Of a DNA stretch of 64,000 bases, positions 20,013-62,815 are shown piece by piece. The notes below the pieces were generated by a model. That model saw only the letters and a list, made by a program, of their open reading frames with translations, did no database searches and was not told the DNA's origin. The position numbers and the translations under genes are program-made. Source of the stretch: Naegleria gruberi (Eukaryota); assembly GCA_000004985.1 (NCBI GenBank), contig GG738893.1, one strand, 5' to 3'. Position 1 is the stretch's first letter. Each line of letters opens with the position of its first letter.

Positions 20013-23000
20013 GTGGAACTACCACTAGTTTAAGACTTGCATGCTACAATGTTAACGGTCTATACAAGCATGCAGTCCATAAATCTGTAACTCAAGAATT
20101 GAAATCTATGTGTTTAACACATGGAGTTCATATGATGAGTATTACAGAAACACACGTTAACACTACTGAATTAGAAATTAAAGTTAGAAATTCTGGTTCA
20201 GGTTATTTATTATTTAACTCCCTTATGGGTCGATCTAAAGGCTGTAAAGGAACAGCAGTTATGCACTTTTTAAATAATCATAGAAAGCGTAACATTACCA
20301 ATAATAATTTAGTACCTGGAATCTTACAATGGACAAGATTTGAAAGCAGGGGAATTCCAATTAATTTATTTACTATTTATTTAAGTGGCAGATCAGATGA
20401 TTATGAAAATGATCAAGAAGCCATTAACAGTTTTATCAATGCTGTTTTAACATGTAAAGATGAACATATTATTTTAAGTGGGGATCTTAATATTGATACT
20501 CAAAACCCCACTACTACAAGAGAAAAGGATTGGATTTGGATTCTTGAAATGTTAAAATTGACAGAATTCAAAACACCAAATTATACATGGATTAGACGAA
20601 GTCAGGGAACTTTAATTAGATCTAGACCTGACCATATCTTTGTCTCAAAGAATATTAGAGTGGTAAAGGAAGTAATTATGACACCTTTGACCACTAATGA
20701 TCATGTCCCTTTTTATTTAGATTTAGAATTTAAATCTAATCTTACTTGGAGAACTTACTTTAGTAAGAATAAGAGGAAAAGAATGTACGAAGCAATTAAT
20801 AAGTGTAAAATTGACAATTTTCAAGAGCTGAATCAAGCAATTGAGGCTCAAATAATTAAATATGGATCCAAAGTAGATAGATTAGGAGTTGGAAGAATTT
20901 CTACAGCATTTAAAGAAGAAATTCAAGATTTAGAGGATGAAATATTATCTAAAATTAATAACCCTAATATTCCTCAATCAGAAATACAAGAACTACAAAC
21001 ACTCCTAAAAGAAACACATATTAATAATGCAAAAGAGATTAAGGAAAAACTTATAGATGAATTTAATGATAACTCTTCATCTAGAATGTATCAATTTGAT
21101 AAAATGATACACTCTAACCAAATTATGTGGAAAGACCTTAACTTTGAAGAAGAAGAAATAGTGGATTACTTTACAAACAAATTTACCTCCACTAATCAAC
21201 AACCAACATTCACACCAAGTAATTCAACTATCAAAGAAGGTCCAGATTGGAGCAATTCGATTCATATTAAAGAGCTACAAGATGCTCTCAAACGAATGAA
21301 ATCAAACACTTCTGGGCCTGATCTAATCTCACTTGATATAATTAAACATCTTACAGAAGCTAATCAAGGAATCCTCTTAGAAGAATATAATAGATGTTTA
21401 AGAGATGGTGATATTCCACAAAATTGGAAACAAGGATGGGTAAAACTCATTCCTAAAAGAGAAATTAATACCTTAAGTGATATTCGCCCAATTACTATTT
21501 TACCAATATTTTACAGAATATTATTTAATATTATAGCATTTAGATTGAGATCTTGGGCATCAACTCATATTAATGTTAGACAACAAGCATTTATTACAGA
21601 CAGAAATACTTTGAATCATGGTGTATTACTCTCTGCCTTAGCAATGAAAACAAGGAAAAGGACTTTTATTTTAGTGAATTTAGATATAGAAGGGGCGTAT
21701 GATGCAGTCGAATTACCTGTCATCAAAATGGCCCTAGACCACTGCAAATACCCTTCAGAACTTACTCAATTCATTTTAAATGCTTATGCTAACCATGAAC
21801 TTCAATTAGAAATTGATAATCATCTCTCTGATAAATTTAAGAAAACAAGAGGAATACCACAAGGCTGTCCACTGGCCCCTCTTATTTACGATTGTATTAC
21901 CCAATTAATAATTGACAAAGCAATTGATAAGTGGAAGATACCAATCAAACCAGGCAAACTATGTGCAAATGATATTGCACTCTGCTGTTTTGCTGATGAT
22001 ATGAATGTTGTATGTGACAGATATGCCAAATATAATGAGAGACTAGACAATATTCATGATTGGTTACATCAATTATTATTTAAATTGAATGCTAAGAAAT
22101 CAGTAGCAACTCTATTACCTAAAAAGAGCACAGTCTCACCTAAAATCAAAGGTACTCCAGTACCTAAACAGAAAAACCTTAGAGTACTTGGCCATTACCC
22201 TTGGGATGATACTTTGGTAACACAAGACATCCAATCCAAGATAGACAAATTCACAAAATCATTAAGATTTTTACCATTATTCAAATTACAACCAACAAAC
22301 CTTAAAATAATTATGCATGCTAAAGCAATCAGCTTATTCACCCACCTCTCAAAAATCAATATAATCCCTTTAAAGAAAGCTCAGGAAATAGATCGTGCAA
22401 TTAGAGGTGCAATCAGACGTAAATTATTAATGGACAGAGCAACTCCAACAAGTTTCTTTCACCTGCCATTAGAAGAAGGTGGATTACCATCAATTGAGGA
22501 ATTCTCTGAAAGAATGAATTTAAGAACTATGAATTTAATCGCCAATAATAAGAATAAGTTAATAAGAAAAGCTTGTGAGGAAACTAAAGATAATATTTAT
22601 GCTAAATGGTTATCTGTACTTAAAGAATATAATCTCACATTTGTGCAGAATGATACGAAATTTAGAATAGCCAAAATTAAAACAGGAAATAGTTTCGATA
22701 TCCATACAGATGGATCTAGAATTAATCAAAAGACAGGAATGGGTATTAATATTTATGATACCTCAAATAGATCAGTTCCTTGTAAAACTTTATCCCTCGA
22801 ATCAATGATCATTATTCAAATAATATAGCCGAAATATGCTCCATAATAACTTCTATTAATGTAATCCCACGAAACTCTAAAGTTACCATTCATACTGATA
22901 GTGAAGTTGCAATAGAAGTTCTCAAAGATAGATACAAAGGAGATTTTCTAACATTAAAAGAAGCCTTCTTTAGAACAATCAAAAATAGAAAAATAGAATA

Positions 23001-23667
23001 TGAAATTAAGAAAGTTGAAGCACACAAAGATAGCGAGAATATCAAGGTTGATTTAATAGCAAAGAATGCTACAACCAGAGATGATATTTTTGATATTTGT
23101 AATTTACTCAAGAATCAACACCTCCTTGTTAAGGATGGTGTTGTCATCTTCAATCATAAGAAGATGACCATAACAAGACATTTAAGTGTAAGACATAATA
23201 AGATGAATGAAAACCCTAACTTTATTCTAAACCAAAGTTGGGATTCTCTTAATGTGCAATACCTTAAAACTCGTCTTACTCCTAAAACTAAATACTTTAT
23301 ATGGAGAAATTCCATCAATGCCCATATCAATTTTGGTAAGGGTAAAAGTTTCTGTTACGATTGTGGTACAGAATCTGATTTATTCCATTACATTCATGAG
23401 TGCCCTGGCTTGGATAGTGCCAGGTATTTTTGTCAGTCAAAGATATCTGATATTCTTGAAGGGAGAGAGTGCTTACTTTCTCATTTTCAATTCAAACCAG
23501 AAAAGCATCACCATGCATTACATTTCCATCATAACGGAATCACCTCTTTCGAAGATGGATACATGCAATTCCATAAAGACATCGCTAAGAAGTGGCCAGA
23601 GATCCAAGGTGCCATTTCTAACTTCGTCGGCCGTTCCTATTCTAACTATTATATTGACTCCAAATAA
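20009..23667 (+). CDS. Retrotransposon ORF2: APE endonuclease, reverse transcriptase, RNase H and a Cys/His zinc-binding domain. One frameshift near 22800 splits it into 20009-22828 and a continuation in another frame to 23667
   Basis: The RNase H motif is interrupted: ...IHTDGSRINQKTGMGINIYD...KTLSLE sits in one frame and NDHYSNNIAEICSIITSINVIPRNSKVTIHTDSEVA... in the frame shared with ORF 23164-23667. Confidence 0.8.
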
Positions 23668-23909
23668 TTTATATAACCTATGAGAATCTGAATAGATTCG
23701 TTATTGTCGTAATAAAAGATTTTTTTACGAGCAATGGATTGGAGTTTTTACCGATTTTTTCCTGCAATGCAGGTTTTTTATAGGAGTTGTTCTACTTCAA
23801 TCTCGATTTTGTAAACAACTTTATTAACTCGGGTTCTCTTCCAATCCGTGGTGTTCCGTTTGGTTAAAACAATGTTGTGAAATTCAATCAATCTAACAAC
23901 TACAATTGT

Positions 23910-25601
23910 TTAATTCTCTAATAAGCGTTTCATTTCATTCATTAATTGACCATAATTTGTAGAAATTGTGTTGAATCTAGAATTTAAAAACTCTAGTCCA
24001 ATTAAATCCATTTTCAATACTTTATAATAGTCCACTACTGGTTCATCCTCTCTTCCTTCTTGTATGGTATTTATAATTTCATGATTCATATTGTTCATTC
24101 GCTTTCCAAGTTTAATTGATTTAACAATTTCCAAATGAATCCTAGAAGCGATGGTAAAGTATGGAATCATGATAACAGTTGAGACTCCAAAAAATTCACT
24201 CTCTGTTAATTTTGTAATGGATAGGGCAGCCTCTTCAATCAAATCTCTCCTAATCCCAAGTTTGATCAACACACCAATTCTCATTCCATTCAACAGTAGG
24301 CTATGAAAAAATTGGAGTGCTCTCGAATAAGCTTGTAAATGTCCCACGTTTGATCTTTTAGCATCTACCAGTGTAGAATTCATTAATACGTTTCCAATAA
24401 GTTCACCAATTTTCAATAAATCAAAACAATTTTCCACAGTAATGGGTTTCTCAAACACATTTAATATTTCTTGATCAAGTTTTTGACCTGTAGAGTATTC
24501 GAATAGCTTAGGAACACTACTAACTAACCCAATCAATCCAATATCTTCCATTGCTAAATGTTGAAATAAAATACAAGATTTCCATAAATTGCTTTCATGA
24601 GTGGAATTTTCAACACTTAGAGAATTTTCCATTTTTGAATTAAAGTAAAATTTTGATGAGTAAATATAGTAATTAGATAATTTTTTCCTTCCAAATCCAT
24701 ATTCATATATAGCTAAATTGTAATAAATGCATGAAACGATAAATGAAGGTTCTCTATCCATCAATAGAGCTGATAAAAATTGTTTACATTTTTGAATGGA
24801 TGCTTCTCCACCTTGTCCAACAAATTGTTCAACTAGACCTTTTGCACTTTGATAAAAACATTCCATTTCCTTACAAGTTGTTGTACTCATTAAGGAGTTA
24901 TCAACATGTTCGTTTTTTAAAATATATTTTTCCAATTCTGTTCTATCGACAAGTGTGTAAACGTCGCTTAATAATAGATAATAATTTTCAATAATCCTAC
25001 TTTTTGTAAACTTTCTACTCAAACTGTTAAATATTATGGGGTTGGCACAAGAAATTGGAGCATTTTCTTTAACTTGATCATTAGTATTATTATTTGATGC
25101 ACTGGAATCAGAAGGTGGAAGTTGTCTTCTTCTTCTTTCTACTTTCGTTTATTTCCTTTGCATTTCTAGTTCTTTTTGTTTCCATGTAGACACATTCAGT
25201 TCCAATATTTATACATCTTTCACATTTGGGTATTCTTCTATCTGATTACATGTACATGTTGTTTAATTGTCAGGAAATATTCAATATAATGGATACAAAC
25301 CACAAAAGGAATGTGCTTTTCTACACCTAAGACACGAAATAGGATGGAATGTTTCCTTCTGCTCATCACCATTATTATTTTCATCAGAAGTGATTTGCAA
25401 ATTTAATGATGATGATATTTGTTGAGTAGAATCCTCGGGATGTTCCACGTTTTTGCTCTCTTGTTCTGTTGGAGATATATTGAAAAATGTATTGGAAGTG
25501 TTGTTCAAAACTTCTTCCGATGCTGGGTTATACAATGCTGAAGGTGTCCACACTGAATCATCACCACAACCAAATAACCTCAAAATGTCCTCATCATCCA
25601 T
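23910..25601 (-). CDS. Zn(II)2Cys6 (GAL4-type) binuclear-cluster transcription factor. Exon 1 is 25301-25601, a 59-nt intron lies at 25242-25300, and exon 2 is 23910-25241 with an apparent 1-nt frameshift in the basic linker (about 25111-25150)
   Basis: Splicing GTTTGT...AATCAG joins ...ISCLRCRKAHSFC to DRRIPKCERCINIGTECVY, giving the full C-x2-C-x6-C-x6-C-x2-C-x6-C motif followed by the basic stretch KRTRNAKEINESRKKKK. The downstream 370-aa ORF continues in the +1 frame. The shift is inside an AGAAAGAAGAAGAAG purine run. Confidence 0.6.
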
Positions 25602-28319: not shown

Positions 28320-30964
28320 TTATATTGAATCCATGTAATCCTCTACAAAAAATTGATCAATCCTTGTATGATAATGTGATAGGATATTGACCATGGTTTC
28401 AACATTTGACACTCGGGATTGAATATAGCAAATAATATCTAGTATCTTCTTGGAGGGATAATCATCAGGATTTTCTGTCAAGTAGTCTTTGAGTTGAATC
28501 TTCTTTTCATTGAGAGTATCTGGATCGGAACTGGTAAATATTTCAAATATTGAACGATATTGTTTGTAATTGAATATTTCCTTCTCAAATTCACACATCC
28601 ACTCTAAAATAATTATTATTAATATATATTTTGTAATATTAGTTTGATGGAAAATTCATTAATACATCTTTGGGACTTGAAAACAACCTACCTTCTCCTT
28701 CTTCTTCTATTTGATTATCCACTTCCTTGATTACTTCATAGACATTTTTAATAACTTCTTCAGATGGTCCACTTGCACGAACATAACATTGGAAGAGGAA
28801 TCTATCAATTGGTCTCGAAATGAATTGATCACACAAAGTTGTTTGCTCATCAGCAACTATGTGAACACCATTATGAGAAGCCAAATAACTTAAACTTTCT
28901 GCCACTTTACAGGCATTGGAAATGATGGACAAGACCTTGTGATGTTTGGTTCCTAAATTTCCAACATATGAATCTGCATTTGTGGAAACTCCAATACCAA
29001 ATTCAATCTTTACATCAAAATCCTCTTTGAATTGCTTGTTAAAATATTCGAGACCTTTCTGCAGTTTTAAGGCCAATTCGAGAGCTACAATATTGGATTT
29101 GATTACTCTTGGCTCTACAATGACTCTAAAATCTTCAAGTGACAGAACTTGAAGATCACAATGTAATAGTCTTGTACAATCAGTCATGACACTCAAAATT
29201 TTTGGAAATGATGCAGAAATGAAGTGAGGAGTATTATACTTTAAATAGTTATGCAATCTCACATGAATAACAGAGCATTCCTTCTGATTAAGACCTGTTT
29301 GAAATGGATGGCATGCATCATTAGTTTTCTCATACTTGGCATAGCTTGGATTATGATTGATGGTTTGAGTCTTTTTTGGATTTTTCTTTGGATTGGAGCT
29401 ATAACGAATATCTTGAATGACAGATGGAGGAACGAATGACCTGATTTCTCTCAACCATCTCACTGTTAATGATAAACTTGTATAGACTTGGCTCAACTCA
29501 TCAAACATTGAGTCAGGGATAATCATACCTTCCAAATTCAAAACCTTAATTTTTTGGAATTGTTCTTGGAGGAAGGTTATTGGTCTAATAATAATCAGAG
29601 AAAGAGTAATTCCAAACAAGACTCCGATGAATGTTACCACTACAGCTACGGAAACAGACACAGCAATACTAATATGGATACTTTTCATGACATCAGACTC
29701 TACAACCACTGTGTACATATCCCATTTTACATTGTGATATTCATAGATTTGATGTCTAACAAAGTAATTTACACCCAAACTGGTAACTGTGACACTTTCA
29801 GGCAAATTTTCAATATCTCCATACGTATCTTTCAGTTTTTGCATTAGTTGACCTGCATTCCTTTCAGTAATTGCGTAAATACTAAGTCGTTCCTTTTCAT
29901 CAGGAGAGCTACAACGAACGCTTCCAGCTAAAGCAAAATCACTACCATTCTCTTTGATAATTACGTAGCCATGCTCGAAAACTTTGACTTTTTTTGAGAG
30001 GAAATTACTAAAACCAGCTAGTGGCCTCACTATACGAGCTATTCCTTTGAATAATTTCACACCCTGAGAAAATAATTCTTGATCGAAAACTTTAGCTCCG
30101 AAAGAAATTGATAAGGTTCCATTAGTGACAATGTATGGCTTACTAAATGCTCCCTCTTCTCCCATTCTTTCAGCTTCTGCCAATGGAAACCAATAATAAT
30201 CCTTAATTGATACATTATACGGTGTAAAGTCAATAGTATCATTCAACTTGAGCAAAGTTCCATTATTATCGTATGTATCTCTGAGAGATCCTATGAAAAA
30301 TGTTGTCTCAAATAATATTAATTTCAAAATAATTACCTATGAATCCTGGAGGTTGATAAGAGTAGACGATTCTTTCATCATCTTGCTTTCCAACAATCGT
30401 ATAGGAATATCTTTCTGATGGATTACCAAATGCATAACCAACACTCAATCCACTCACTTTATAGGGTGTGTAAAAGTATTTTCGAAAGACACTCGGCTCT
30501 GTTAGTCCATAATTGTAATGGTCTGCCATTATAAATCCAGTATCTTTCATATTCTTCAGAACTGAATCAATATACAATGTGATTTTATCCTGAACCAAAT
30601 CTTGAACATTCCCAGTTAGTTGATTCACTGAATTATACATTGCCACAAACACGGAAACATAAATACTACCCGAGCACACCACAATCAATAATGTCATTAA
30701 TATTATAATAAAAGCCTTTAAGGAACAAGGGCCTCGTAAATCGCTCAAATAGTATTCATCCAAGTAGAATAAATTCAGAGAGCCATCATCATTCCTTCGG
30801 TGTTCTTGTTGTTTCTGAAGCTCTTCCTTAATAATTATATCTCCAACAGAATAGGAAGAAATATTTACACATGATGGTGCATTTTCTGAGGAATTTCCCT
30901 CGCCACCTTCATTCATATCAAGAAACGGAGGTGCTAGCATATTTGTTGCATTATTCATCATCAT
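28320..30964 (-). CDS. Two-TM sensor-domain membrane protein with a C-terminal divergent cyclase-like domain (ACG-like architecture), 836 aa. Exons are 30337-30964, 28692-30290 and 28320-28603. Introns are 30291-30336 (46 nt) and 28604-28691 (88 nt)
   Basis: Architecture: N-terminal cytoplasmic segment, TM1 (AFIIILMTLLIVVCSGSIYVSVFVAMY), an extracellular domain of about 330 aa, TM2 (IAVSVSVAVVVTFIGVLFGITLSLIII), then a domain resembling class III cyclases (KIEFGIGVSTNADSYVGNLG...LSIISNACKVAESL; ...LSLEDFRVIV). Both splice junctions were checked for frame: PGFIG|SLRDTY and EEGE|EWMCEFEK. A first-metal Asp looks substituted (His) at the position tried, but the alignment is tentative and done by eye. 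Confidence 0.6.
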
Positions 30965-35125: not shown

Positions 35126-35348
35126 TTTCTCCACTACAAATTATCAAAGCAAATAAAGCAATTCAATTTTGGAAGTCCCAACAATTCTTAAACGTAAATT
35201 GATAGCTTTACTGGTAGGCGGGGAGATACCACAACCTCTCAAATAACATCAAACACGAGATATTTACAAATGTGCATCACGTAACTGACACAGTTTGTAA
35301 TCATGCGAGCAATTACCTCAAATCTTGTCAATCCAAACATTTAAAAAA

Positions 35349-44423: not shown

Positions 44424-44432
44424 TTTCCCGCC
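44424..44432. promoter_or_regulatory. E2F-like motif TTTCCCGCC in a 200-bp divergent promoter between the F-box gene (-) and a membrane protein gene (+)
   Basis: Matches the E2F consensus TTTSSCGC. It is embedded in the palindromic TTTTCCCGCCAAAA. A single occurrence, so it could be chance. Confidence 0.25.
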
Positions 44433-44597
44433 AAAATTGGATTTAAAACTTTAAAAAAATTAACAAATTTGCCTTAACGAATTTCTCAAACCAAATTTTA
44501 ACGATTTTTTCTCGTTCTTATTCTTCAGCATCAACTGAATACAAACGCTGCCTCGAGACGACAACAACAAGCCTCCGATAAAAGGAGTGTTCTCTCG

Positions 44598-45926: not shown

Positions 45927-46376
45927 ATGTCAAACACCAACCAAACAAAAAGTAATAGGTCGAAAGCCCAAAGTAACTGGAACCAAGCCATGCTAGAGAG
46001 CTCGATAAATTCCAGCCGGCTGATAATATGGAAAGTGGCCAAAGATAAAACTATCAAATCCACACAGGAGAGAAAATCCATCAAGAAACAAAAGACGAAA
46101 GTGACTGTCGATGGAATTGTGAGGAATCGAATGATTTCTGATAGAGAGATTATGCAAGTTTTACATTTACCACAAATGCAAGCATGTAAAATATTGAATT
46201 GTAGTTTATCCACTTTGAAAAGAAGATTTTACGAATTGAAAGATGGTTTTGGATTAGACAGATGGCCCAATAATTTGCTTGTTGCCAGACATTTGCCAAT
46301 TTTCAAAAAGATTTATCCAATGTCTTTGGACTTTATTCTGAATCATGACGACGAAACATCTACCACTTCTCAATAA
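45927..46376 (+). CDS. Small RWP-RK-like domain protein, copy 1 (149 aa)
   Basis: C-terminal ISDREIMQVLHLPQMQACKILNCSLSTLKRRFYELKDGFGLDRWPNN...HLPIFKKIYPMSLDFILN. It aligns to the RWP-RK core (AAK.LGV..TTLKR.CR..GI.RWP) with the RK dipeptide replaced. Confidence 0.75.
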   Translation: MSNTNQTKSNRSKAQSNWNQAMLESSINSSRLIIWKVAKDKTIKSTQERKSIKKQKTKVTVDGIVRNRMISDREIMQVLHLPQMQACKILNCSLSTLKRRFYELKDGFGLDRWPNNLLVARHLPIFKKIYPMSLDFILNHDDETSTTSQ

Positions 46377-46468
46377 AATCATCTACTAATTTCTAACTGA
46401 ATTTCGAACTAGAATACATGTTTATTTTCAAACAAATATTAGAAAGTCAAATGGATGACAGAGAATCT

Positions 46469-47680
46469 CTAACTAAGAATATCACCAACAGCTTTATAAC
46501 AATAAAATTCATATTTCAAAAACTCAAACGAGCCATCTCTTATTCCCAACGCCAAACAACTCGAATTAATTTCCTCTCCATCAGTCACTCCTCTATAATG
46601 CAACTCTTCCTTCATGAAACAAGTATAAACATGATTGAATTGTTGATTCTTGAGCAACTTTTCAAATTCCACTTCAACGCCATCGTGAGCTGTTTGATGT
46701 GGACAGCAATCAGCAATATTTGAATGGAATGATAATTGATGAGGAGCAGAATATTCAGAATGCAAATAGATCAGTAAATTGAAAAGTGCTTCCTTTGCAA
46801 AATTAACTTTCAAAACTCCAGATTTGTGACAATTAACTACAAAATCATTAATCCATTGATTGAAATTTTGAGTAATTTCGTTTGGAACTTGTTTTTCAAT
46901 TTCAACATCAACTTCATTGTAATCAAAATCATCAAAACCTGTAACAATGTGTGAGGAATCAATGAAATCTAACTTGAAAGAAGTTATCTTTCTGATATTT
47001 CTAACAATATCATGTTGATAAGTTCCAAAAAAATCATTCGATTCTACATAAACTCTACAACTTTCATTGTAATAAATCTTTTCCAAATCCTTTACAATTT
47101 TTTCATCAATTTTTTCAACAATTCCATTGATTAAGAAATGATTCTTGAAAGAGGTTGGACTTTCTTCTTTCTTTTCATTCGAAACATGACTAATCAGAAG
47201 TGGAAAGAATAAGAAATCTTCATAACTAAACCGAAAACGTTTCTGACACCAAATCAGCTCCATATCCATTCCAATTAATTTAGCCAACTCGTAAATTACA
47301 CCTTTGGCCTTCAATTGCTTTGGAACTTGATCAAAATTTTGTGGTTTTTCAAGTAAAATTTTGCCAAATGTCAAAACATTTTTCTTCATTGGACGTCCTA
47401 CTTCAAACTCGAATAACTTCTCAGTTAGACAAGATTCAATAGAATAATAAGCTTTTGATAGATAGTATAGCATGGAAACCTCATGAATATTGATAGGTTT
47501 CGGAAAATCTTGTTCGAAATCTTTCACAATTGGCTGAAGGAAAATATTTAAATTTTGTTCGATCAGGAATTTCCATTCCTTGTTCACGAGAGTGAATTTT
47601 AGGATATCTTTCAGGGTGGAATAGTCGAATAGGATGGAGAGGAAGGTGTCGATGTGGTGTGTGAGCGGATGTTGTGTCAT
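46469..47680 (-). CDS. Hypothetical protein with an F-box-like N-terminus (403 aa)
   Basis: ATG at 47680. N-terminal FLSILFDYSTLKDILKFTLVNKEWKFLI. No other recognised domain. Confidence 0.45.
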   Translation of the reverse strand: MTQHPLTHHIDTFLSILFDYSTLKDILKFTLVNKEWKFLIEQNLNIFLQPIVKDFEQDFPKPINIHEVSMLYYLSKAYYSIESCLTEKLFEFEVGRPMKKNVLTFGKILLEKPQNFDQVPKQLKAKGVIYELAKLIGMDMELIWCQKRFRFSYEDFLFFPLLISHVSNEKKEESPTSFKNHFLINGIVEKIDEKIVKDLEKIYYNESCRVYVESNDFFGTYQHDIVRNIRKITSFKLDFIDSSHIVTGFDDFDYNEVDVEIEKQVPNEITQNFNQWINDFVVNCHKSGVLKVNFAKEALFNLLIYLHSEYSAPHQLSFHSNIADCCPHQTAHDGVEVEFEKLLKNQQFNHVYTCFMKEELHYRGVTDGEEINSSCLALGIRDGSFEFLKYEFYCYKAVGDILS

Positions 47681-47761
47681 TTGCTATTTTTTTAGTTTCG
47701 AATAAAGTTTTATTTTTAATGAAAGTGTGAAACAGTGTTACATTCGGCTAAATTGAAAAGT

Positions 47762-49066
47762 TTACAATTTGATAATATCAGATTCTAAAATTTTCTTATA
47801 TCCTCCAACAGTTTGTTGTGAACTTTCACTATTCGAATCTTTTGATAATTGTGAAATTGGATTTTCCGTCTTTTCAAAAACAAATGTCGTGTACAACTTG
47901 ACAACTGTCCAAAAATCCTCATTCATATCTCGAACATTTAATCTTGGACGACTATTCTCAGTTTCTCTATTATTTCTGTATTTTTCATAAAAATCATAAA
48001 AATTCAAATTCTCAACCAATGAAAGATTGAATTCCTTGGCCATTTCTATAAATATTTGAGGGTTGACTAGATATTCAGGACATGGATCGACGGCATCTTC
48101 CAATTGGAATGTATAGCAATTTCCAAATGGTTCCTCAAATGATTTGTCATCAGAACATTGAAAATTAGCTTGAAATACTGAATTTTTCAATGTCTTTCCC
48201 TCAACTTTCTTTAACATGCTTTGTAAAACGTTGGAATCAAGTGTGGTGACGATGAATTTGCCTCCCTTCTTCAATCTACTGGTGGCATTTTGCAATGCAG
48301 TTTTAACATGTTCCTTACTTTGAAAAAAGTAGTGGAAGGCAAATTGACATGAAACTGTATCAAATTCCACATTGGAATCAAGTGCACTTTCAATTGACAC
48401 TTTCCCAACATCTGCATGAATTAATTTGGCAGGAAACTTCAAATCTCTTCCTCCATTATATCTTTCACTCAAACTCACCAATGAATTGAATGAAATATCA
48501 ACTCCTACATAATTCTTAATATTTCTAAAACTGAATTTGAATAAATCACCTCCCTTTCCACAACACAAATCCAAAACAGTGCACTCATTCGGAACATATT
48601 TGTAAATCAAAACTCCTTTCAGCCAATTATTAAAATCCTTAATTGGTTTAATTGGTGAATTGTTTCTTTCTTCCCTCGATTGATTCTTCCTCTGATCATA
48701 CATCTCCTCCGGTGTAAATGTTCTATTATTGTAATTCCTATTATTACTATCACGATGATGATAATTACGATTATTGTTGTTATTATTATTGTAATATCTA
48801 TTATTATTATTATTATTTGAATGATAACGTTCTTGTTGTTTATATTGTTTTTGAATTCCTCTTGATTCTCTATTATATGATGATGATGATGAATTATCAT
48901 CTCTATCATTCATTCTCCTATTATTATTATTGTTATTATTATTTTGATGATGATGAGAATTGGAAACATGATCATTCCGATATTCTCTTCTCCTCTCTGT
49001 ATTGTTATTGTTGTTGTTGTTGTTGTTATTACTGTGATGATGAGAGGCTGAGTCTTGTGCTGGCAT
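47762..49066 (-). CDS. mRNA cap guanine-N7 methyltransferase (ABD1/RNMT family) with an Asn/Arg-rich low-complexity N-terminus
   Basis: SAM-binding motif VLDLCCGKGGDLFKF, followed by YVGVDIS, FDTVSCQFAFHYFF and GGKFIVTTLDSNVL. The N-terminal 120 aa are encoded by AAT/AAC microsatellite-like repeats. Confidence 0.8.
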   Translation of the reverse strand: MPAQDSASHHHSNNNNNNNNNNTERRREYRNDHVSNSHHHQNNNNNNNNRRMNDRDDNSSSSSYNRESRGIQKQYKQQERYHSNNNNNNRYYNNNNNNNRNYHHRDSNNRNYNNRTFTPEEMYDQRKNQSREERNNSPIKPIKDFNNWLKGVLIYKYVPNECTVLDLCCGKGGDLFKFSFRNIKNYVGVDISFNSLVSLSERYNGGRDLKFPAKLIHADVGKVSIESALDSNVEFDTVSCQFAFHYFFQSKEHVKTALQNATSRLKKGGKFIVTTLDSNVLQSMLKKVEGKTLKNSVFQANFQCSDDKSFEEPFGNCYTFQLEDAVDPCPEYLVNPQIFIEMAKEFNLSLVENLNFYDFYEKYRNNRETENSRPRLNVRDMNEDFWTVVKLYTTFVFEKTENPISQLSKDSNSESSQQTVGGYKKILESDIIKL

Positions 49067-49160
49067 TTTTTTTTAAATTGTTTGAACAAATATTATAAAG
49101 ATATTTAGGATAATTTTAAATCATGTAATATCATGTAATAACAACACTACAAAATATTAA

Positions 49161-50039
49161 AATTAAGGTGGCACTGTAGCTGACAATAAAAGGAAATTCG
49201 GTAAAAATTTTTGGTTAATTATTTTTTACAATTCTTGCTGAATGACGAAGTAATTTATTAAAGTTTGAGAGGTTCTCCTACACTCTCCTACAAATTTGGA
49301 GACTTGGTTAGAAGACAGCATCTTCTCTTATATGTGAATAGTTTATCCCTACTTTACTTTGCTTTACTTTTCACTCTCTTTAGAATAAATAATGAAATCC
49401 CAACATGATCCGATTGTTCTTCATCATCGTAACGGTAAAAAAATTAAAGTTTTAACCTTCTCCTACACTCCAGTAACAAAATTAAACATTGCAAAAAACA
49501 AGATATGGTCTAGATGTGTTGTTATGTTTGTACCAACTTTACTTTGCCTTCTTATTGTGTTTCCGTATTGAAAATAAGCAACTAAAAGTACTATCAAAAC
49601 CAATTAATTTTATTTTCGGATGTTCTACAAATTTTAAATGAAATTGCATCACGAAGTTCTCAACCATCAGATAGGATTCAACTGTTTCTGTAGCATGCAA
49701 AAGAGAATATTCTAAGAACAATACTGAATGTGTATGTAGATCACTGGTGTGGAAATTATGACAAGTGCTATGGAGAAAAAACAAGATGCTTGTTGTAAAA
49801 TTGACGAAAGAAGTGCATAGTTTCAGAAACACAATCAACAGAAATTAATTTCCGAAAAAGAAAGAAGAAGAAAATAGATCATGGTGTTTCATGTTCATGT
49901 ACTGCAAAAGTTGTCCTTGTAAATCAGCTCGTGTGTTGTGTGGCAATGATTGTCACAAAGGACAAACAAGATGTAAACTGTTTCGACTTGTTATTTTTTT
50001 TAAAATTTTGGTGAACAATGAACAATAGTGCCACCTTAA
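49161..50039. repeat. Pair of 13-nt inverted repeats (TTAAGGTGGCACT ... AGTGCCACCTTAA) about 860 bp apart, MITE/TIR-like
   Basis: Seen directly. The outer TA or TTAA could be a target-site duplication. The interior has only a short non-conserved ORF. Chance occurrence is not excluded. Confidence 0.3.
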
Positions 50040-50312: not shown

Positions 50313-50789
50313 TTAGTCTTCGTTGAGAATGAATTGAAGGCTCATTGGATAAAGTTTGTTAAATATTGGCAAGTGACGTATTTCAAAAAAGTATTGTGGC
50401 CATCTCTCTAATCCAAATCCATCCTTCAATTCGTAAAATCTTCGTTTCAGAGTAGATAAACTACAATCTAATTGTTTACATGCTTGAATTTGGGACAAGT
50501 GCAATACCTGTAACATTTCCTTCTCAGAAATTATTCTATTTCGTCTTGGTTTTGAAATTTTAGTTTCAACAAAATGTGAAGAACCATTAGAGGATATCTT
50601 TCTCCAACATGTAGTCATGAATTGAGCAGAACCAGAGCCATTAGTATTTGTCTTTCTTGTATCAACTTGAAAGGATGAAGAATTCAATTTCTTGTTTTTG
50701 TCTGAAGATGACCCAGAAGATGAACTTGACAAGTCAGAACTCTTGAAATTTGCCGTGCTAGTTGACTGACATGGGGTGGTTGAATGCAT
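50313..50789 (-). CDS. Small RWP-RK-like domain protein, copy 2 (158 aa)
   Basis: ISEKEMLQVLHLSQIQACKQLDCSLSTLKRRFYELKDGFGLERWPQYFFEIRHLPIFNKLYPMSLQFILNED. The N-terminus is Ser-rich. Confidence 0.75.
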   Translation of the reverse strand: MHSTTPCQSTSTANFKSSDLSSSSSGSSSDKNKKLNSSSFQVDTRKTNTNGSGSAQFMTTCWRKISSNGSSHFVETKISKPRRNRIISEKEMLQVLHLSQIQACKQLDCSLSTLKRRFYELKDGFGLERWPQYFFEIRHLPIFNKLYPMSLQFILNED

Positions 50790-51894
50790 TTTGATTTTGT
50801 GTTGTTGGTTTTTTTTGTGTTTTGATAATTTCTTCTTCTACACACAGCGTGTCTTTCCAAATTATGAAGCAGGAAGGCAACAATGAAGTGTCACACAAAT
50901 AACTGTCACATCTTCTACAACAGTAGAGCCTTCCTTTTAGAGAACCTATCCATGAAATTTGGAATTTTAACAAAGGCAACGAAATGAGATAAGCATGTTC
51001 GTGTGGTTTTCTTTGGGTAAGTGTTGAATTTAAACTCTCCTTTTAGGCCAACCAATCACTTGTGTTGACACTATTTGGGTTTTGATACGTTTTGATTTGG
51101 GCCTTGCTTGGCCACAAGTCCCTTATGGACCAATAACACTCATCTATTCTAGTACATTTAGGTAAATGTTAATATATTTAATGTTCAGAGCTGTTGTGAG
51201 AAGTTTTCTTCTTGTTTTTGTCGTTACCAAATGTACTCGGTAAATCATGATAGTGCCAAAATTACTCTGTAGAGAGGTGTTATTTCAACTGTTGAGATGA
51301 TTGTGTATTAGCAATATCAATTGTTCTTATCACTGATGAGAGTTCGGATGCATCTCCCGCATCAACAGAACTCCCTTTTCTCCCAACAAAATAGATTTAG
51401 CCATGGTAAATAAGAATCAGAATGTAATCAGGCTAAAAAACACTATTCTCACACCTTCGGCAATGAACTTTGCTCTTCTTGCCTTTTAAATTTGCTCTCA
51501 AAATCTTTACTATTTTCAAGCCTTCATAATGATCAAGACAACAACACGAAACCGTTCTCTATGCAATAATACATATATGTGTTCAAGAGAGAAATCAATA
51601 CAAAGGTTTTGAGGCTTTTTTATTAAGAATTTACAGTTTTCTTGGCGCCAAAAATTTTACTTTTAAATTAAACGTTTGAAAAAAATGGTGCGATGAATGA
51701 GAAGGAATTTTTGATCAAAATTCACGAAGGAGAAGTGCCATAGAGTTTGGTGTGAGATGATTGAATATGGGAGGTTTTATTTGATTTGATGCATTAATTT
51801 GAATAGCTGATCTATGATAATTATTTACAAGTGTATTAATAATTATTAGTAATTATTAATAATCAAAACATGAGTAAACATCATGATAATTTTT

Positions 51895-52473
51895 CTAATT
51901 GTTGAGAAGTTGTGGTTTTACATTTTCATCAGTTTGAATATTTGTGCTTTTGCTTCTGTACTCTGGATCGGCATATTTGAGCAAATTTAAAGTGGAACTA
52001 TTCAACTTTCTTGCTGGCTTTGAAATCCTATTGTTTGGTTTCAAGCTTTTCAGAACAAGTTGATGAGGACTGGAAGATTTCTTGATGAGGATTGGCTGGG
52101 TATTTAGTCTTGTGCTTATTAGAATTGGATTGGCTCTGTTAATGATTGTCCCATCATTAACATTATGTGTATTATTACTATTATTAAAGAAATCAATATG
52201 GCCCATCAACAGGTTCGTTTCATCTTGGAGAGGAGTTTGAATTGGATAATGCATTGCTAAATTATCGGAATGATGATATTGATCTCCTTCTTGTCCAAAT
52301 ACTTCATGTGCTTGTGGTGTTTGTTCTTGTGGAAAATATTCAACAACAATTTCTTCAACCTCTGATGAAGACAATGAATCTCTCGACCTGTTCATCACTA
52401 AAACACGTGTTGTATTTTTCTTTGGAAATGAAAACGATTGTTGACGGGCGCTAAAATACCAACAATCTTTCAA
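51895..52473 (-). CDS. Hypothetical Asn/Ser-rich protein (ORF only)
   Basis: ORF track only, with no motif recognised. It sits between two RWP-RK copies. Confidence 0.25.
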   Translation of the reverse strand: MKDCWYFSARQQSFSFPKKNTTRVLVMNRSRDSLSSSEVEEIVVEYFPQEQTPQAHEVFGQEGDQYHHSDNLAMHYPIQTPLQDETNLLMGHIDFFNNSNNTHNVNDGTIINRANPILISTRLNTQPILIKKSSSPHQLVLKSLKPNNRISKPARKLNSSTLNLLKYADPEYRSKSTNIQTDENVKPQLLNN

Positions 52474-52573
52474 TATGATTTAAAATAACAATATTTTTTG
52501 TTCCTACCCAAAAAAAGGTAAATTTGCTGTTGTCATAGAATGGAATGGAAATGGATTAATAGGTCGAATCTAT

Positions 52574-53206
52574 CTATTCCTCATCACTGTTGAGAATGAA
52601 TTGTAAATTCATTGGATAAATCTTTTTGAAAATTGGCAAGTGACGAATTTCAAAGAAATATTGAGGCCATCTTTCCAATCCAAAACCATCCTTCAATTCA
52701 TAGAATCTTCTCTTGAGTGTGGAAAGACTGCAATTAAGTTGTTTGCATGCCTTTTGTTGTGATAAATGCAAAACTCCAAGAATTTCCTTTTCAGAGATGA
52801 CTCTCTTCTTTTCCACTGAATTGAATGAATTCGTTTCCACAATATAATTAGCAAAAGTTGATGATGTGCATCTCCATTTGGTGATGGTAGGTGTTGTATT
52901 ATTAGATGAACCAACAGTAGGTAAGTTTCTATTACTGACATGTTGCCAAACATTTGCACTTAGATTCGATGCAGAGCTGCTGCTCTTAGGAGATCCACTG
53001 CTAACACTGCTCATACATGCATTATTGCTTCTAACACATTGTTGTGAATGAGAAGGATATTGAAATGTCTGATCTACCACATGCATGCCTTTCTGAACTA
53101 TCACATGTTTAGATATGCTCATTGCTGGCTGTTGTTCCAGCACAATGGTCAGCTTGTTTCCTGACATTTTCTTACTCTTTCCAATCTTGTTATTATTGCT
53201 ATTCAT
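52574..53206 (-). CDS. Small RWP-RK-like domain protein, copy 3 (210 aa)
   Basis: VISEKEILGVLHLSQQKACKQLNCSLSTLKRRFYELKDGFGLERWPQYFFEIRHLPIFKKIYPMNLQFILNSDEE. ATG at 53206. Confidence 0.75.
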   Translation of the reverse strand: MNSNNNKIGKSKKMSGNKLTIVLEQQPAMSISKHVIVQKGMHVVDQTFQYPSHSQQCVRSNNACMSSVSSGSPKSSSSASNLSANVWQHVSNRNLPTVGSSNNTTPTITKWRCTSSTFANYIVETNSFNSVEKKRVISEKEILGVLHLSQQKACKQLNCSLSTLKRRFYELKDGFGLERWPQYFFEIRHLPIFKKIYPMNLQFILNSDEE

Positions 53207-53924
53207 CTTGTTGCTATTTTTTTTTGAAAATTATTGAAAGAATTGATATTTGGATTTGTGTCATTTATATACGAATTAAGAAGCAAGAATCATCTCTGGT
53301 TTGATGTTTTTTTCTCTTTTTGCTCGAATGTCACTGAGAATCATGATCATAGTTTGTTCGAGATGAAACGAATAGAATGGACGAAAGAGATACGTAAGGA
53401 GATGGTGTTTCTAGTTTTGATATTCTTGATGAAACAGGAGAACTTTTCTGTCCCTTTCATGTAATACGTGTTCTTTTTGAAGAGTACGGTAACATGTCAA
53501 ACACAAGTGTTAAGGAGATTGTTTAATCTTTGGATTACATGTGATTAATGGCATTTCTAATCTAGTTGAGCATGTTCAGAAACAACTCATCTATCTTTGA
53601 AATCAAGCCCTAAATACTTCAGAGATGATGAAACATGATTTCAACCATATTGATCATTATTCAAGTCGTTTGACTTTTGACAATTATTGAATACTTTAAA
53701 AGGAATCATCAAGTTGACATTATGATGATTTAATCGATGGTGAACCTTTAGCTTATCCTTCAAAACAAACTTCAATAATAATCGAGTCCAGTAGTTTAGA
53801 AATTGAAAACACAGTTTGTATTTTTTTACTGATGAGATTACTTCAACACGACAAACTAATTCATTCCACATTAGTCAACCAAGGCAACCTCAATCAAATA
53901 AGACAAATATTTTGACATCTTTCT

Positions 53925-54308
53925 TCAATCATTCAAAATGAATTGCAAACTCATTGGGTAAATCTGTTGGAAAATTGGCAAATGTCGAATTTCATGAAAA
54001 TATGTCGGCCAACAATTTAATCCCAAGCCATCCTTCAGTTCGTAGAATCTTCTTTTCAAGGTGGATAAACTACAGCCGAGTTGTTTGGATGCTTGTTGTT
54101 GGGAGAGATGCAAAACCTTGATCATTTCTTTATTGGATATGATTCGATTTTTTGTTTTCTTTCGTTTATTTCCTTCAATGAATTTGTTACCAATAGAAAC
54201 TCGTTTGAGGACGAAAGAGAACTCATTTGAAGAATGAGTTGTCGATTTGGTTGGAGAAGGTTTCTTTTTCACTATTGAAGTAATTTCAGATGTTTCAATT
54301 CTTGACAT
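53925..54308 (-). CDS. Small RWP-RK-like domain protein, copy 4 (127 aa; variant CWP in place of RWP)
   Basis: IISNKEMIKVLHLSQQQASKQLGCSLSTLKRRFYELKDGLGLNCWPTYFHEIRHLPIFQQIYPMSLQFILND. Confidence 0.7.
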   Translation of the reverse strand: MSRIETSEITSIVKKKPSPTKSTTHSSNEFSFVLKRVSIGNKFIEGNKRKKTKNRIISNKEMIKVLHLSQQQASKQLGCSLSTLKRRFYELKDGLGLNCWPTYFHEIRHLPIFQQIYPMSLQFILND

Positions 54309-54424
54309 TTTGTTTGTTTTGCTTTCGTATACTTACTGTTAACATTTATATAGTACTGGATTGGTTGTAATCATGGGAGATTGAATATCATAATCAGGTG
54401 AGATAGTCTCGTCTCAATCCCAAA

Positions 54425-54600
54425 ATGGATATTTTTATTTTGATTAGTCTTGACAATTTTTGAGAATGAATTGAAAACTCATTCAATGATTTCTTCAAAT
54501 ATTGGAAAATTATGATAAGGGAGTTTCCAATTACCATTGATTTTATATACCATGATGATTGATGGTAACTTTTCAAGATAAAAACCTGCAACTTCTACAA
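54425..54600 (-). pseudogene. Degenerate remnant of an RWP-RK-like gene (C-terminal block only)
   Basis: The minus-strand translation gives ...NFPIFEEIIE*VFNSFSKIVK, recalling HLPIFKKIYPMSLQFILN, with a stop and a frame change. There is no upstream domain. Confidence 0.35.
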
Positions 54601-54653
54601 CAGAAATTGATCAAAGACAATAACTAATACATTTATTAGCACCAGCCTCGAAT

Positions 54654-55157
54654 TTATCTGTTATTCATCTTGTTTACCTCTTTATTTAAGTTGTTAATCT
54701 GATTTATAAGCACAGCGTTCTCATTCTTTAAGAGTTTAACTTCCTTTCTAAGACTAGTACATTCACCACAACAAACTGGCGAGATTGGAGTTTCCTTTTT
54801 CTTTGATTTGCCTGCTTTTTTATCACTACGTTTCTCTGCCAACAGAATTCCTTCTAAACTCCTTGCTTGTTCTTCCAAGGCCTGATTTTTAGTGATAATA
54901 TCTGAAAAGGAAGAATTGGTAGGAAGGAAAATCAATGGTGCATTCTCAGTACTAAGAGAAGAATTCACAAAGAAAGTTGGAATTGGTTTAGCCAAATCTT
55001 CATCAACTACATTCTCAAAAATTACCATATCACCAATGCAAACTGGTTTTTGCAACGGGTTATTAAATGGTGGCTCCAAATGAGAAGTTTCAGATAGGCT
55101 TTTAGGAGTGCAATCTAACAACTTTCCCTTCTGCAGGTCTTTGCTAACAATAAGCAT
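54654..55157 (-). CDS. Putative leucine-zipper (bZIP-like) protein, 167 aa from the ATG at 55157
   Basis: C-terminal heptad leucines LRKEVKL-LKNENAV-LINQINN-LNKEV are preceded by a basic stretch EKRSDKKAGKSKKK. The basic-region consensus is not canonical. Confidence 0.4.
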   Translation of the reverse strand: MLIVSKDLQKGKLLDCTPKSLSETSHLEPPFNNPLQKPVCIGDMVIFENVVDEDLAKPIPTFFVNSSLSTENAPLIFLPTNSSFSDIITKNQALEEQARSLEGILLAEKRSDKKAGKSKKKETPISPVCCGECTSLRKEVKLLKNENAVLINQINNLNKEVNKMNNR

Positions 55158-55437
55158 TTTCAGAAGTGAGGGATTTTTTTTTAATTTATTTTTCAAGGTG
55201 ATTACGGTTTGCGCGGGAAATGTTGGTCATGTGATAAAGCAACATTGGTGGAATCATTAAGCTTGAATTGTTGCTTGTGAAAGTAAGATTGCAAACATGA
55301 GTATTAAGGAAACTTCTTTTGATCTATTCCAATTCAATTTTTTCAACAAGTTTCCAATAAATCTATCCGAAATCAGCACTTGGAAATCAAATTAATGTTA
55401 AAATTGTTTAAAATACAATAATTTCGAATAGATTTTA

Positions 55438-56952: not shown

Positions 56953-58024
56953 TTATTGATCTTGATAGAGAATTACATTTTGTAATAATTCAAAATTGGA
57001 AAGTGAGTTTTGAATGAATCTGTTGAAACATGCTTGAATTGCTGCTAATTCTTGTTGATTTTTGAATGATTGATCTTCTGTTGCATCTAATTGTGCAATA
57101 ATTTCATAATTGGTCAATTTGGAATTCTTTACAATTTTCACAAGTTTTTCCTTTACAAAATTTAAATTTTCCAGCAATAAATTGTCTTCCAATTCAGTTT
57201 CATAAGTATGAATGTAGATAATTAATGGAAAATCTGGAGTATCTTTGATCATGTGAATGGATTCAATGAAAGATTCAATTCTTTGATAATCCTTCTTCAA
57301 TGGCCATGAGGGAATCAACAATATGAAAGCATTTCCATTTCTATAATGATCACAGTGGTATCTATCCTCCTTCTCATGCGCAATTTCAGCTGTATAATGT
57401 CGATAAATAATCAAAATTCTGATAAAACTTACCAATGTCAATAAGTTTAGTTTCACATTTCAAATATTCAAGATATAAACTTTTTAATCCAATGTGATTG
57501 TAATTCACTGAAACATTAACAGTATTTTGTCTTGAACGATACTTTGAATATTTGTAATTTTTTAACGTTTCATATGAAGTGTATGGATCTAATTTCTTAT
57601 GGAATTCACTTCTTCCAGTTTTTTTATCTGAAAGTAGAATTATTGACAATTCTTTGGATTTCAATAATTCTTTCATCATCTTTTGTTTCCATGTCAATAA
57701 TTTACAAATAGAACTATTTAATTGCTTTCTTTCCAATAGAGATTGACATAAATTATTAGCAAGTAATGATCGGCTAGTATTTACCAATTTACCAAATACT
57801 AGGCTCCATATTTTGTTAAAGTAATCCTCCATCAATTCATTCAATTCGGGAGAAATCAATGAAAGATTATTCACTTGTTGGAACAGTGTTGCTGATTCCG
57901 TATTGGTACTGCCAATATTTTCAAATACAAGAAGATAATCGAAAATAATTGCGAATATTTCTGAAGGTAGCTTGTGAATAATTGTTCTTTCTTGTTCTTG
58001 TTGATGAGGAGATGATGCTAACAT
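56953..58024 (-). CDS. F-box domain protein. Exons are 57433-58024 and 56953-57389; the intron is 57390-57432 (43 nt)
   Basis: The F-box is LPSEIFAIIFDYLLVF. The donor G|GTAAGT and acceptor TTATACAG|CT join ...KLIDI to AEIAHEKEDRYHCDHY... in frame. Confidence 0.6.
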
Positions 58025-60651: not shown

Positions 60652-61477
60652 TTAAATTGTTTCAATCACTCCTCCACTCGAAATATTCGGAATTGAATTA
60701 TTAAACAATTCATTATATGAAGAAATATGATCCGAATGGAATGACGATGAATTTTCATCTTGTTGTTTTTCTTCATTCAATATGAATTGCAAAGACATGG
60801 GATATAATTTGTTAAATATTGGTAAATGTCTAATATCATGGAAATATTGTGGCCAACGTTTCAATCCGAGTACATCCTTCAATTCGTAAAATCTTCTTTT
60901 AAGAGTTGAAAGACTACATATAATTTACATGCCTGTTGTTGGGAAAGATGTAAAACCTGAATCATTTCCTTCTCGGATATCACTCGATGTTTCCTCACTT
61001 TGGCCATTTCGAGATAACTTTGAATCTTCTTCTCCTTGAATGAGGAAGAACCTTGTGGAGAGAGAACCTTCTTCCAACACACTGTGAGCTGATTGCAACT
61101 GGAATTCAGATGAGGTTGGGATGTTGATGATGAACCTGCTACTGATGATGAGACACATGTATGACAAGTGTTGGAACTTGTATTAAGGAGTTGGATGGAA
61201 CTACTTGAGAGAGATGTGGTAACTGTAGTGGTGTTAGTATTATTGGAGGGAGAAGTGGATGGATTAGTTAATATTACATTGGAAAAACGACCACTATTAA
61301 TGTCTGCCTTAACATGTGTTATGGTATGTTGTCTCTGCCTTAACATATTGCGAGGTTTTGGAATACCGTTGACGTACTGTAGATAGTGTTGTTGTGAGTT
61401 GAAAGATGTGGAAGAAGAACTACTAGAGCAACAAGAAGAACTGGATGATGTATTTGCAATGCACAAAAAACTCATTA
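60652..61477 (-). pseudogene. RWP-RK-like gene, copy 5. It is frame-disrupted inside the domain by a net 4-nt deletion relative to the paralogs, which merges ORFs 60879-61658 and 60652-60882
   Basis: ...VISEKEMIQVLHLSQQQACKL then shifts frame to CSLSTLKRRFYELKDVLGLKRWPQYFHDIRHLPIFNKLYPMSLQFILNEE. The paralogs read ACKQLNCSLS; here it is ACKL(+2 nt)CSLS. The N-terminus begins MSFLCIANTSSSSS at about 61477. Confidence 0.5.
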
Positions 61478-61900
61478 TGAATTCAGTTGATTGGTATCGA
61501 TAGTTGATTGGAATGTTTGGTAGTTTTTTTGGATTCACCAACCAACTGAATGCACAACAAGGTGTGGGATTCAAAATTGGTGGTGTGAAAGATGGAGTTG
61601 TGTTTAATCTCCTATGGACATATATAGTGGTTGTGAAAAATGGAAAAGCACCCCTCAAATTAGTTGTGGACTTTTTTCAAGTTCTTCGTTATGTTGGTTG
61701 AGGCAGACGATTAAGGATGTGAGGACTGTGCTTGCTTTAGAAATATGATATACTTCATCTTAACATGGCTTTATCGGCGAAAAATAGTTCGTATTAGCCA
61801 TATGTCCTCAATATGAAAAGAATCATTTTTCCTTTATGGACTGCTCAACTATTTATTTGCTTGTTCTAAATGACAAAACTTGATTCTTCCACATTTGAAA

Positions 61901-62815
61901 TCATTTCTTGGCGAGCCTCCTCAGTGGTAATGATACTTCTTCCTCTATACCGTCTACTTGTTTTCTCTTCCATTGTTGTGGAACTGGCTCTGACATCTCA
62001 GCTAGGTCTTCAATCTCCTCTGGAGTTGGTAATGGCTTTGTGTGGTGCTTGTCATTGAGGAGGTAACAAGTGGTCATTCCCTTTCCTTTAACTTCAATGT
62101 AACGTTCCTCAAATTCAAATCCCAAATCATGAACACGTTCATAGGTCGATCTGCTGATTTGAATTCTTCCTGAGAGTGATGTTGATTCGATTCGAGAAGC
62201 TGTATTCACTGCATCACCCCACAAATCATAAGCAAACTTTTTAGTTCCAATCACTCCTGCAATTACTGAACCAGTGTTAATTCCTGCTCTAATATTAATT
62301 TGTGTTGTTGGATTTTTAACATTAAAGTCATGAATCGCATCAAATGTTCCCATTGCAAATCTCAGGATGCAGATTGAGTATATCCAATTCCACTAACACA
62401 GAAATAAGCATCTCCAATGGTCTTGATCTTTTCCAAACTATACTCATCTGTCAAGGCATCACTGTAAAGTTAGCTCTGTGAACCACTCTCAAAACAGATG
62501 TTCCATGTTTGATATTCAACATTGTATAATAGGAAGAGTTTACATTAGTTTCAGATTCTAACAGAATCAATCCACAACACTAGGTCACAAAAACCACACA
62601 ATCACAATTCCATATATGAAGAACAAATTTCTAGATTGATTGAAACTATTCTTTGGCAAGTGAATGGCCACACCATCATCATTCTTTATACCAATTTGGT
62701 GATATATTTTACCAACTACATTCTTGGATAAGGAAGTATTCATCAGATTCAGCACTTGTTTAAATTGAGACATTTCTCTTCTAGTTATCATGAGATAGAC
62801 AAGGAATGCAACCAA
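61901..62815 (-). pseudogene. Compressed and frame-disrupted paralog fragment of the PAS-cyclase receptor gene (cyclase catalytic core plus a piece of the membrane region)
   Basis: 61901-62353 encodes ...ILRFAMGTFDAIHDFN...GINTGSVIAGVIGTKKFAYDLWGDAVNTASRIESTSLSGRIQISRSTYERVHDLGFEFEE, about 70% identical to the same region at 40.2-40.6 kb. Upstream, DALTDEYSLEKIKTIGDAYFCVSG sits in a frame offset by 1, with a stop between. 62585-62815 encodes ...VGKIYHQ..., resembling IGKIYQQ in exon 2 of the intact gene. About 1.5 kb of intervening coding sequence is missing. Confidence 0.5.

Follow-up and report, generated by a model that had tools for sequence, protein, structure and literature searches.

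The window analyzed here, a 64,000-nt stretch of Naegleria gruberi NEG-M DNA, is the telomeric end of a 337,165-nt scaffold in the Sanger draft of the Joint Genome Institute (JGI), and it holds six loci in which an open reading frame (ORF) is interrupted by a change of frame: a non-long-terminal-repeat (non-LTR) retroelement, a Zn2Cys6 transcription-factor gene, a cathepsin B-like gene, an F-box gene, the fifth copy of an RWP-RK family, and a copy of a membrane PAS-cyclase gene. An initial annotation had grouped them as single-site disruptions of otherwise conserved genes; a frame change was confirmed where it had been placed in all six, but the loci do not represent one phenomenon or one class. 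We consider them, at a probability of about 0.5, a mixed bag in a chromosome-end region with fast turnover, in which one locus is certainly a relic pseudogene, one may have an intron, one is a transposon copy that is either defective or mis-read, and three are minimally broken genes.

Frame breaks in six loci near a telomere

Three ORFs of the window are identical to N. gruberi EFC40337, EFC40342, and EFC40269, all on that scaffold, and the window begins with a telomere array at positions 1-450 (75 copies of AACCCA, the G-strand being (TTTGGG)n). The GC content is 33.0%. The assembly gaps cited in the initial annotation as an argument for sequencing error are present (13,194 N in four gaps), but all of them lie before position 18,860, whereas every flagged break falls within a gap-free contig of 45 kb (18,861-64,000). 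Each site was checked with three-frame translations and with reconstructions carrying inserted bases, which gave seven breaks in the six loci, as the cathepsin B-like gene has two. Exactly one added base restores the frame at six of the seven, and the remaining one, in the Zn2Cys6 gene, needs +2 or -1 nt. The loci are the following:

20009-23667, plus strand: non-LTR retroelement ORF2, which encodes endonuclease, reverse transcriptase, and RNase H
19170-20012: ORF1 of the retroelement
23910-25601, minus strand: Zn2Cys6 transcription-factor gene, with exon 1 at 25301-25601
40952-42009, plus strand: cathepsin B-like gene, with a true 68-nt intron at 41837-41904
43504-44399, minus strand: F-box gene, as two ORFs that overlap in different frames at 44133-44163
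60652-61658, minus strand: RWP-RK copy 5, with a break at 60912-60926 inside the RWP-RK domain
61901-62830, minus strand: relic of a membrane PAS-cyclase gene, with the flagged break at 62355-62395 (one base to be added)

The breaks in RNase H, in the Zn2Cys6 gene, in the cathepsin B-like gene (both), and in RWP-RK copy 5 are genuine features of the assembled sequence. They are of the one-base type, disable the ORF, and cannot be spliced out, and the ORFs concerned are otherwise open for 76-370 codons. The genes with such single-type breaks show recent purifying selection. Each frame change had also been said to restore a conserved domain, which held for RNase H, the cathepsin propeptide, and RWP-RK, but not for the Zn2Cys6 and F-box genes, whose domains are not split.

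The retroelement has a single break within 22786-22825, inside the RNase H of ORF2, and one added base produces an ORF2 of 1,219 codons in which PF00075 spans the break (profile positions 6-139 of 141, E = 1.9e-11). With this base, ORF2 carries the domains expected of a non-LTR element (PF14529, PF00078, and PF00075), the endonuclease match to PF14529 scoring 22.8 bits, under its cut-off of 27.4 bits. The JGI model D2VRZ9, which surfaced in a chimeric protein homolog query dominated by cyclase matches, crosses the RNase H break by means of an artificial intron (joining ..NRSVP to FTIHTDSEV..) and leaves out the reverse-transcriptase domain as well. ORF1 shares 4 nt with ORF2, which is in another frame, and no ATG precedes the endonuclease domain in ORF2; this arrangement is the usual one for such elements, and a further lesion could be hidden there.

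The two breaks of the cathepsin B-like gene are 116 nt apart and need one base each. Break a lies in a T3 run (40965-40967) of the signal peptide, where the added base gives MKKYIFCIIILLLLACLQIVDA, predicted to be a textbook signal peptide. Break b (41079-41085) lies inside the C1 propeptide, and PF08127 (Propeptide_C1) spans it with positions 3-35 of 40. With both bases added, the protein matches PF00112 with an E-value of 2.3e-48 and PF08127 with an E-value of 1.7e-6, the latter at 28.3 bits, under the Pfam cut-off of 32.7 bits. The corrected cathepsin has the features of the papain family, namely Peptidase_C1 with the catalytic Gln, Cys, His, and Asn (Q124, C130, H274, and N295, all in invariant columns) and a C1 propeptide. 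In its nearest homolog (P0128, 57% identity), the signal peptide, propeptide, and mature enzyme share one frame, and the alignment passes over break b as FIRE-I-NQKAKTWVAG. The JGI model, D2VS07, is a 218-residue fragment made of one ORF, without signal peptide, propeptide, or last exon. If the sequence is true as read, the enzyme would have neither signal peptide nor propeptide. Around the catalytic cysteine (41328-41345, residues 126-131), this cathepsin reads QCAACY where CGSCW is near-universal, and G128A and W131Y were found in it alone among 40 homologs. A scan of JGI metagenomes with the cathepsin returned extended matches of at most 46% identity, the top value of 62% spanning 34 residues only. 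The contig of the closest cathepsin homolog was considered as an aid for the neighboring F-box gene and rejected, as it is not syntenic.

RWP-RK copy 5 was compared with four intact copies in the window:

46104-46355, plus strand: intact RWP-RK reference copy
50316-50789, minus strand: intact RWP-RK reference copy
52577-53206, minus strand: intact RWP-RK reference copy
53928-54308, minus strand: intact RWP-RK reference copy

In a DNA alignment, copy 5 is 4 nt shorter at 60912-60926 than all four, which bears out the one 4-nt case among the reported frame changes, and one added base restores its frame. A Logan copy of the plus-strand RWP-RK protein was rejected as an independent source, as it comes from the same metagenome run used below and not from an isolate. 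RWP-RK copy 3 (53928-55226, minus strand) probably forms the final exon of a gene with three exons, between which the gaps, of 62 and 64 nt, are intron-sized. The first ORF of this putative gene (54657-55196) matches bZIP weakly, and the interval 53928-55226 has a single JGI accession slot.

In the Zn2Cys6 gene, a true 59-nt GT..AG intron (25242-25300) restores the cluster motif CX2CX6CX6CX2CX6C, which fits the class pattern CX2CX6CX5-12CX2CX6-8C and is thus regained by splicing and not by frame correction. The break itself falls in 25108-25152, where the linker that follows the DNA-binding domain has a purine (AAG)n run, AGAAAGAAGAAGAAGA, and Zn_clus (residues 89-124) stands wholly on one side of it. 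Colinearity with a homolog from a public assembly (P0006, 1,367 residues) extends from the zinc cluster through the whole downstream ORF of 370 codons, and joining the ORFs across the break is therefore justified. If the sequence is true as read, the protein would lose its regulatory domain. No JGI model for the Zn2Cys6 ORF was found with a chimeric query composed of the cathepsin N-terminus, the Zn2Cys6 protein, and the F-box protein, which returned one distant homolog; this null excludes only long near-identical proteins, because the query also missed the JGI cathepsin fragment despite an identical overlap of 47 residues.

Decay and polymorphism in the region

The cyclase copy had been described as one more single-site disruption of a conserved gene; it is instead an old relic pseudogene with many lesions, among which the flagged break is one. 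The piece at 62830-62460 is homologous to residues ~630-743 of paralogs of ~1400 residues and passes directly into the final three-quarters of the catalytic domain. Within it, the ORF at 62585-62815 matches residues ~630-706 of the N. gruberi paralog P0010 (E = 1.5e-9), and the next stretch matches the paralog up to residue ~743 in another frame, with an in-frame TAG at 62580-62582. The alignment then leaps from residue ~743 to residue ~1177, and the copy contains at least three frame changes. Its losses amount to ~615 codons at the N-terminus, ~430 codons internally, and positions 1-40 of the catalytic domain. The Guanylate_cyc match covers profile positions 41-182 of 183 only, so the complete class III catalytic domain, with the segment of the first metal-binding Asp, is not there. 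Remnants of the missing half were sought with tblastn, blastn, and Pfam in all frames, and profile positions 1-40 had no match in any upstream frame. JGI annotates the terminal 150-codon ORF of the relic alone, as D2VS19. The window also contains an intact counterpart for reference:

35325-40715, plus strand: full-length PAS-cyclase gene of three exons (~1,770 codons), with GTAAGT introns at 37764-37804 (41 nt) and 38839-38884 (46 nt)

This gene is colinear with the paralogs P0009 and P0019. The relic aligns to residues 421-597 of it only, with an amino-acid identity of 55-76%, and is 56-67% identical to the top N. gruberi paralogs. The JGI model of the intact gene, D2VS06, omits the whole 1-kb middle exon (37805-38838).

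As independent sequence, we used two sister-strain contigs from a metagenome assembly (ENA ERZ929261, run ERR1078381):

44189-49167: covered by contig L001 at 98.1% identity, ending 37 nt short of the candidate donor in the F-box gene
51760-53624: covered by contig L021 at 94.7% identity, with coding indels that all sum to multiples of three

L001 differs from the window by 17 indels. Those in coding sequence comprise one of 3 nt, two of 6 nt, and a deletion of 11 nt at window positions 44954-44964, which lies between TTCAA direct repeats and cuts a MAPEG-family gene (44598-45386, PF01124), a neighbor of the flagged loci, to 138 codons. This deletion is a natural frameshift allele and is unlikely to be due to a base-calling error. 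The non-coding part of the comparison (1 kb) has 11 substitutions and 9 frameshift-size indels, six of them of 1 nt, and overall ~60% of the natural frameshift-size indels between the two strains are of 1 nt. Since indels of frameshift size are found about as often as substitutions in neutral sequence here, lesions consisting of indels only are expected in a young pseudogene; a pseudogene younger than ~0.5% divergence is expected to have one or two indels and nothing else. The coding sequence gives one frameshift per 3.7 kb at 0.74% divergence (a single event), from which a handful of lesions is predicted in the ~32 kb of coding sequence. Another polymorphism is an element of ~870 nt (49163-50039) that is present in NEG-M and absent from L001, with perfect 13-nt inverted repeats that include TTAA (TTAAGGTGGCACT and AGTGCCACCTTAA). 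It resembles a non-autonomous, piggyBac-like transposon of the kind that duplicates TTAA, and it would be polymorphic between the strains. An exact look-up of ten ORF fragments flanking the breaks gave no match in the collection searched, and neither homology searches nor exact look-ups turned up independent sequence at any break site.

Subtelomeric pseudogenes and relics of gene families are found at chromosome ends of yeasts, Plasmodium, and trypanosomes. The region resembles these systems in its telomere array, retroelement, tandem family copies (five of RWP-RK), truncated and internally deleted cyclase relic, strain-polymorphic indels, and transposon insertion. It is unlike them in that its disrupted genes, apart from the cyclase relic, carry one minimal lesion or at most two and appear to be under constraint even now, and in that no family of the antigenic-variation type is involved. 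The suggestion that subtelomeric decay is plausible was well founded, given the telomere array, the multi-lesion relic, and the 11-nt frameshift of the sister strain.

Possible introns, consensus errors, or young null mutations

Short spliceosomal introns that went unrecognized would leave the genes intact and merely unannotated or misannotated. Introns of 41-78 nt are numerous in Naegleria. The window has at least eight true ones; the eight supported by homology are 41-78 nt long with a GC content of 0.17-0.27 and a YAG acceptor in every case, their donors being GTAAGT (six), GTAATT (one), and GTTTGT (one), and they give the same picture of adjacent ORFs in different frames. Several frame switches in the window are ordinary introns of this kind and not lesions:

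30291-30336: intron
37764-37804: intron
38839-38884: intron
42950-43027: intron
43155-43207: intron
57390-57432: intron

Every in-phase, stop-free GT..AG pair was listed at each break. The RNase H break, cathepsin break a, RWP-RK copy 5, and the cyclase break have no in-phase candidate, and those at cathepsin break b were rejected, as they would remove propeptide sequence that can be aligned to P0128. The Zn2Cys6 candidates that retain the sixth cysteine of the cluster (70 and 76 nt) were also rejected, having poor GTAGAA donors, AAG acceptors, and a coding-like GC content of 0.33-0.34. As a general explanation, unrecognized introns are therefore most improbable.

The F-box gene stands apart, as its frame disruption had been described without an intron alternative, and a candidate 68-nt intron could bridge the break equally well. 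The overlap of its two ORFs contains a T5 run (44143-44147) in which one added nucleotide restores the frame, and the F-box domain (residues 122-165) is entirely downstream of the break. The candidate intron (44085-44152, GTTTCT..CCACAG, GC content of 0.25) resembles the class of short Naegleria introns defined from the eight cases in its length, GC content, CAG acceptor, and phase, and it is the only candidate in line with the local pattern of an in-phase GT..YAG pair of 41-78 nt with a GC content of at most 0.27. When one-base deletions were simulated in the coding sequence of the window, 50% gained some GT..YAG rescue of 40-80 nt, and only 5.6% gained one with a GC content of at most 0.27. 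The candidate is unlike the class in its off-consensus donor, GTTTCT, and in its interior, where 19-21 codons are open in the downstream frame, for which the estimated chance in AT-rich intron sequence is ~0.15. The odds between this intron and a lesion in the T5 run are about even. The 5' ORF of the gene has 5 differences from the sister strain in 211 nt (four nonsynonymous changes to one synonymous) against 0.66% for coding sequence overall, and it appears to be relaxed in constraint.

The breaks could also be decoded by programmed ribosomal frameshifting or corrected in the transcript, which would make the genes functional as they stand. The recurrence of one direction, with a -1 shift needed at six sites, is all that favors this idea, and we give it next to no credence: no XXXYYYZ slippery heptamer occurs at any break point defined by homology, the sites have no motif in common, and the breaks fall at arbitrary spots (signal peptide, propeptide, linker, and inside domains). 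To our knowledge, the sole RNA editing described in Naegleria is mitochondrial C-to-U. The retroelement resembles those with programmed -1 frameshifting in the overlap of a few bases between its ORF1 and ORF2, which lie in different frames, and is unlike them in the place of the flagged break, which falls within RNase H instead of at the ORF junction and lacks a slippery site. Breaks that are real and bypassed during expression, by -1 frameshifting or by base insertion in the transcript, are hardly less far-fetched; if this were true, Naegleria would tolerate and decode frame-broken nuclear genes.

The serious competitor is that most of the single-base breaks (RNase H, Zn2Cys6, both in cathepsin, RWP-RK copy 5, and perhaps F-box) arose as indel errors in the consensus of a ~8x Sanger draft, with the genes intact and the cyclase relic the sole true pseudogene. 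We regard it as possible, somewhat short of an even chance. Such errors typically leave one-base breaks in intact ORFs, often beside short homopolymers, and annotators' models that avoid or bridge the breaks, as seen here; the breaks are of the one-base type throughout, bases are missing in six of seven, the ORFs are otherwise fully open with conserved downstream domains, most candidate sites touch short homopolymers or the purine repeat, the cathepsin breaks are clustered, and the draft has 13 kb of gaps nearby. The appeal to homopolymers made in the initial annotation carries little weight, as nearly every candidate site touches a run of 3-5 nt at this GC content. Seven indel errors in ~32 kb of coding sequence within the gap-free 45-kb contig would be several-fold over expectation (an estimate, not a measured value), the deficit of RWP-RK copy 5 is 4 nt and not 1, and frameshift alleles and relics that are demonstrably real lie in the same region. 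No one-base coding discrepancy was seen between the window and the sister-strain contigs in 5.2 kb, where a pure error model expects ~1 (P ~ 0.33), which is weak evidence and does not tell the two readings apart.

Several observations weigh against our preference for real lesions. The sister-strain contigs cover 6.8 kb of the window and none of the break sites. All breaks of the single-lesion loci are of the one-base type, and the six of seven that need a base added compare with only ~60% of 1 nt among natural frameshift-size indels. No nonsense substitution and no second, distant lesion was found in the single-lesion genes. The signs of relaxed constraint are lacking in cathepsin, where a relative-rate test detected no acceleration (three unique changes at conserved columns against two in the nearest homolog), and in RWP-RK copy 5, which is 88% identical to copy 1 at the protein level downstream of its break. 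Two cathepsin breaks so close together fit one low-quality patch of reads, and the draft is unfinished, with the site near a scaffold end.

Even so, decay is real in this region, because the cyclase relic, the sister-strain frameshift, and the polymorphic transposon all attest to it. Assembly indels and subtelomeric decay are both possible for four loci, and for the single-break loci we lean slightly, and not firmly, toward null mutations or alleles that are real and young, as against consensus errors (about 55:45 per site). We propose that most of the single-type breaks would be genuine inactivating indels of very recent origin, in a transposon copy or in members of gene families that are dispensable, that some may come from a heterozygous diploid, as null alleles picked by chance in a collapsed consensus, and that a minority would be draft consensus errors. 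Translation as read would stop soon after each break, and lesions this minimal, if real, would be very young. Sheltered null alleles in a collapsed consensus are plausible, because Naegleria has been described as mainly heterozygous diploid (PMC9928731); that the breaks as such are heterozygous null alleles, accumulating under shelter in a mostly asexual diploid, is unlikely. Independent NEG-M reads are public, with Illumina data as well as the Nanopore reads, assembly, and RNA-seq of PMC12695648.

Gene content and annotation of the chromosome end

A short interstitial tract (CCCAAA, three copies) occurs at ~805-825, ~350 nt inward of the telomere array. A Pfam scan of 20 ORFs between 19000 and 64000 found no domain in 14, including ORFs of 562, 482, 403, and 394 codons; the chromosome end is rich in lineage-specific genes.

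The main consequence of our findings concerns annotation. The nature of the breaks decides whether an additional cathepsin B, Zn2Cys6 factor, F-box protein, and RWP-RK protein should be counted for N. gruberi. Across the six loci, the JGI annotation has an artificial intron once (retroelement) and fragments made of one ORF twice (cathepsin and cyclase relic), while a search for models of the F-box and Zn2Cys6 genes gave none. The UniProt accession order from D2VRZ9 to D2VS20 has no slot for a model of the F-box gene. One free slot exists for three candidate genes, RWP-RK copy 5 among them, so at most one of the three is annotated. All the features found belong to known kinds, and new biology is not implied. 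Were the breaks real, the region would offer a direct view, if a small one, of the pace of gene loss at Naegleria chromosome ends.

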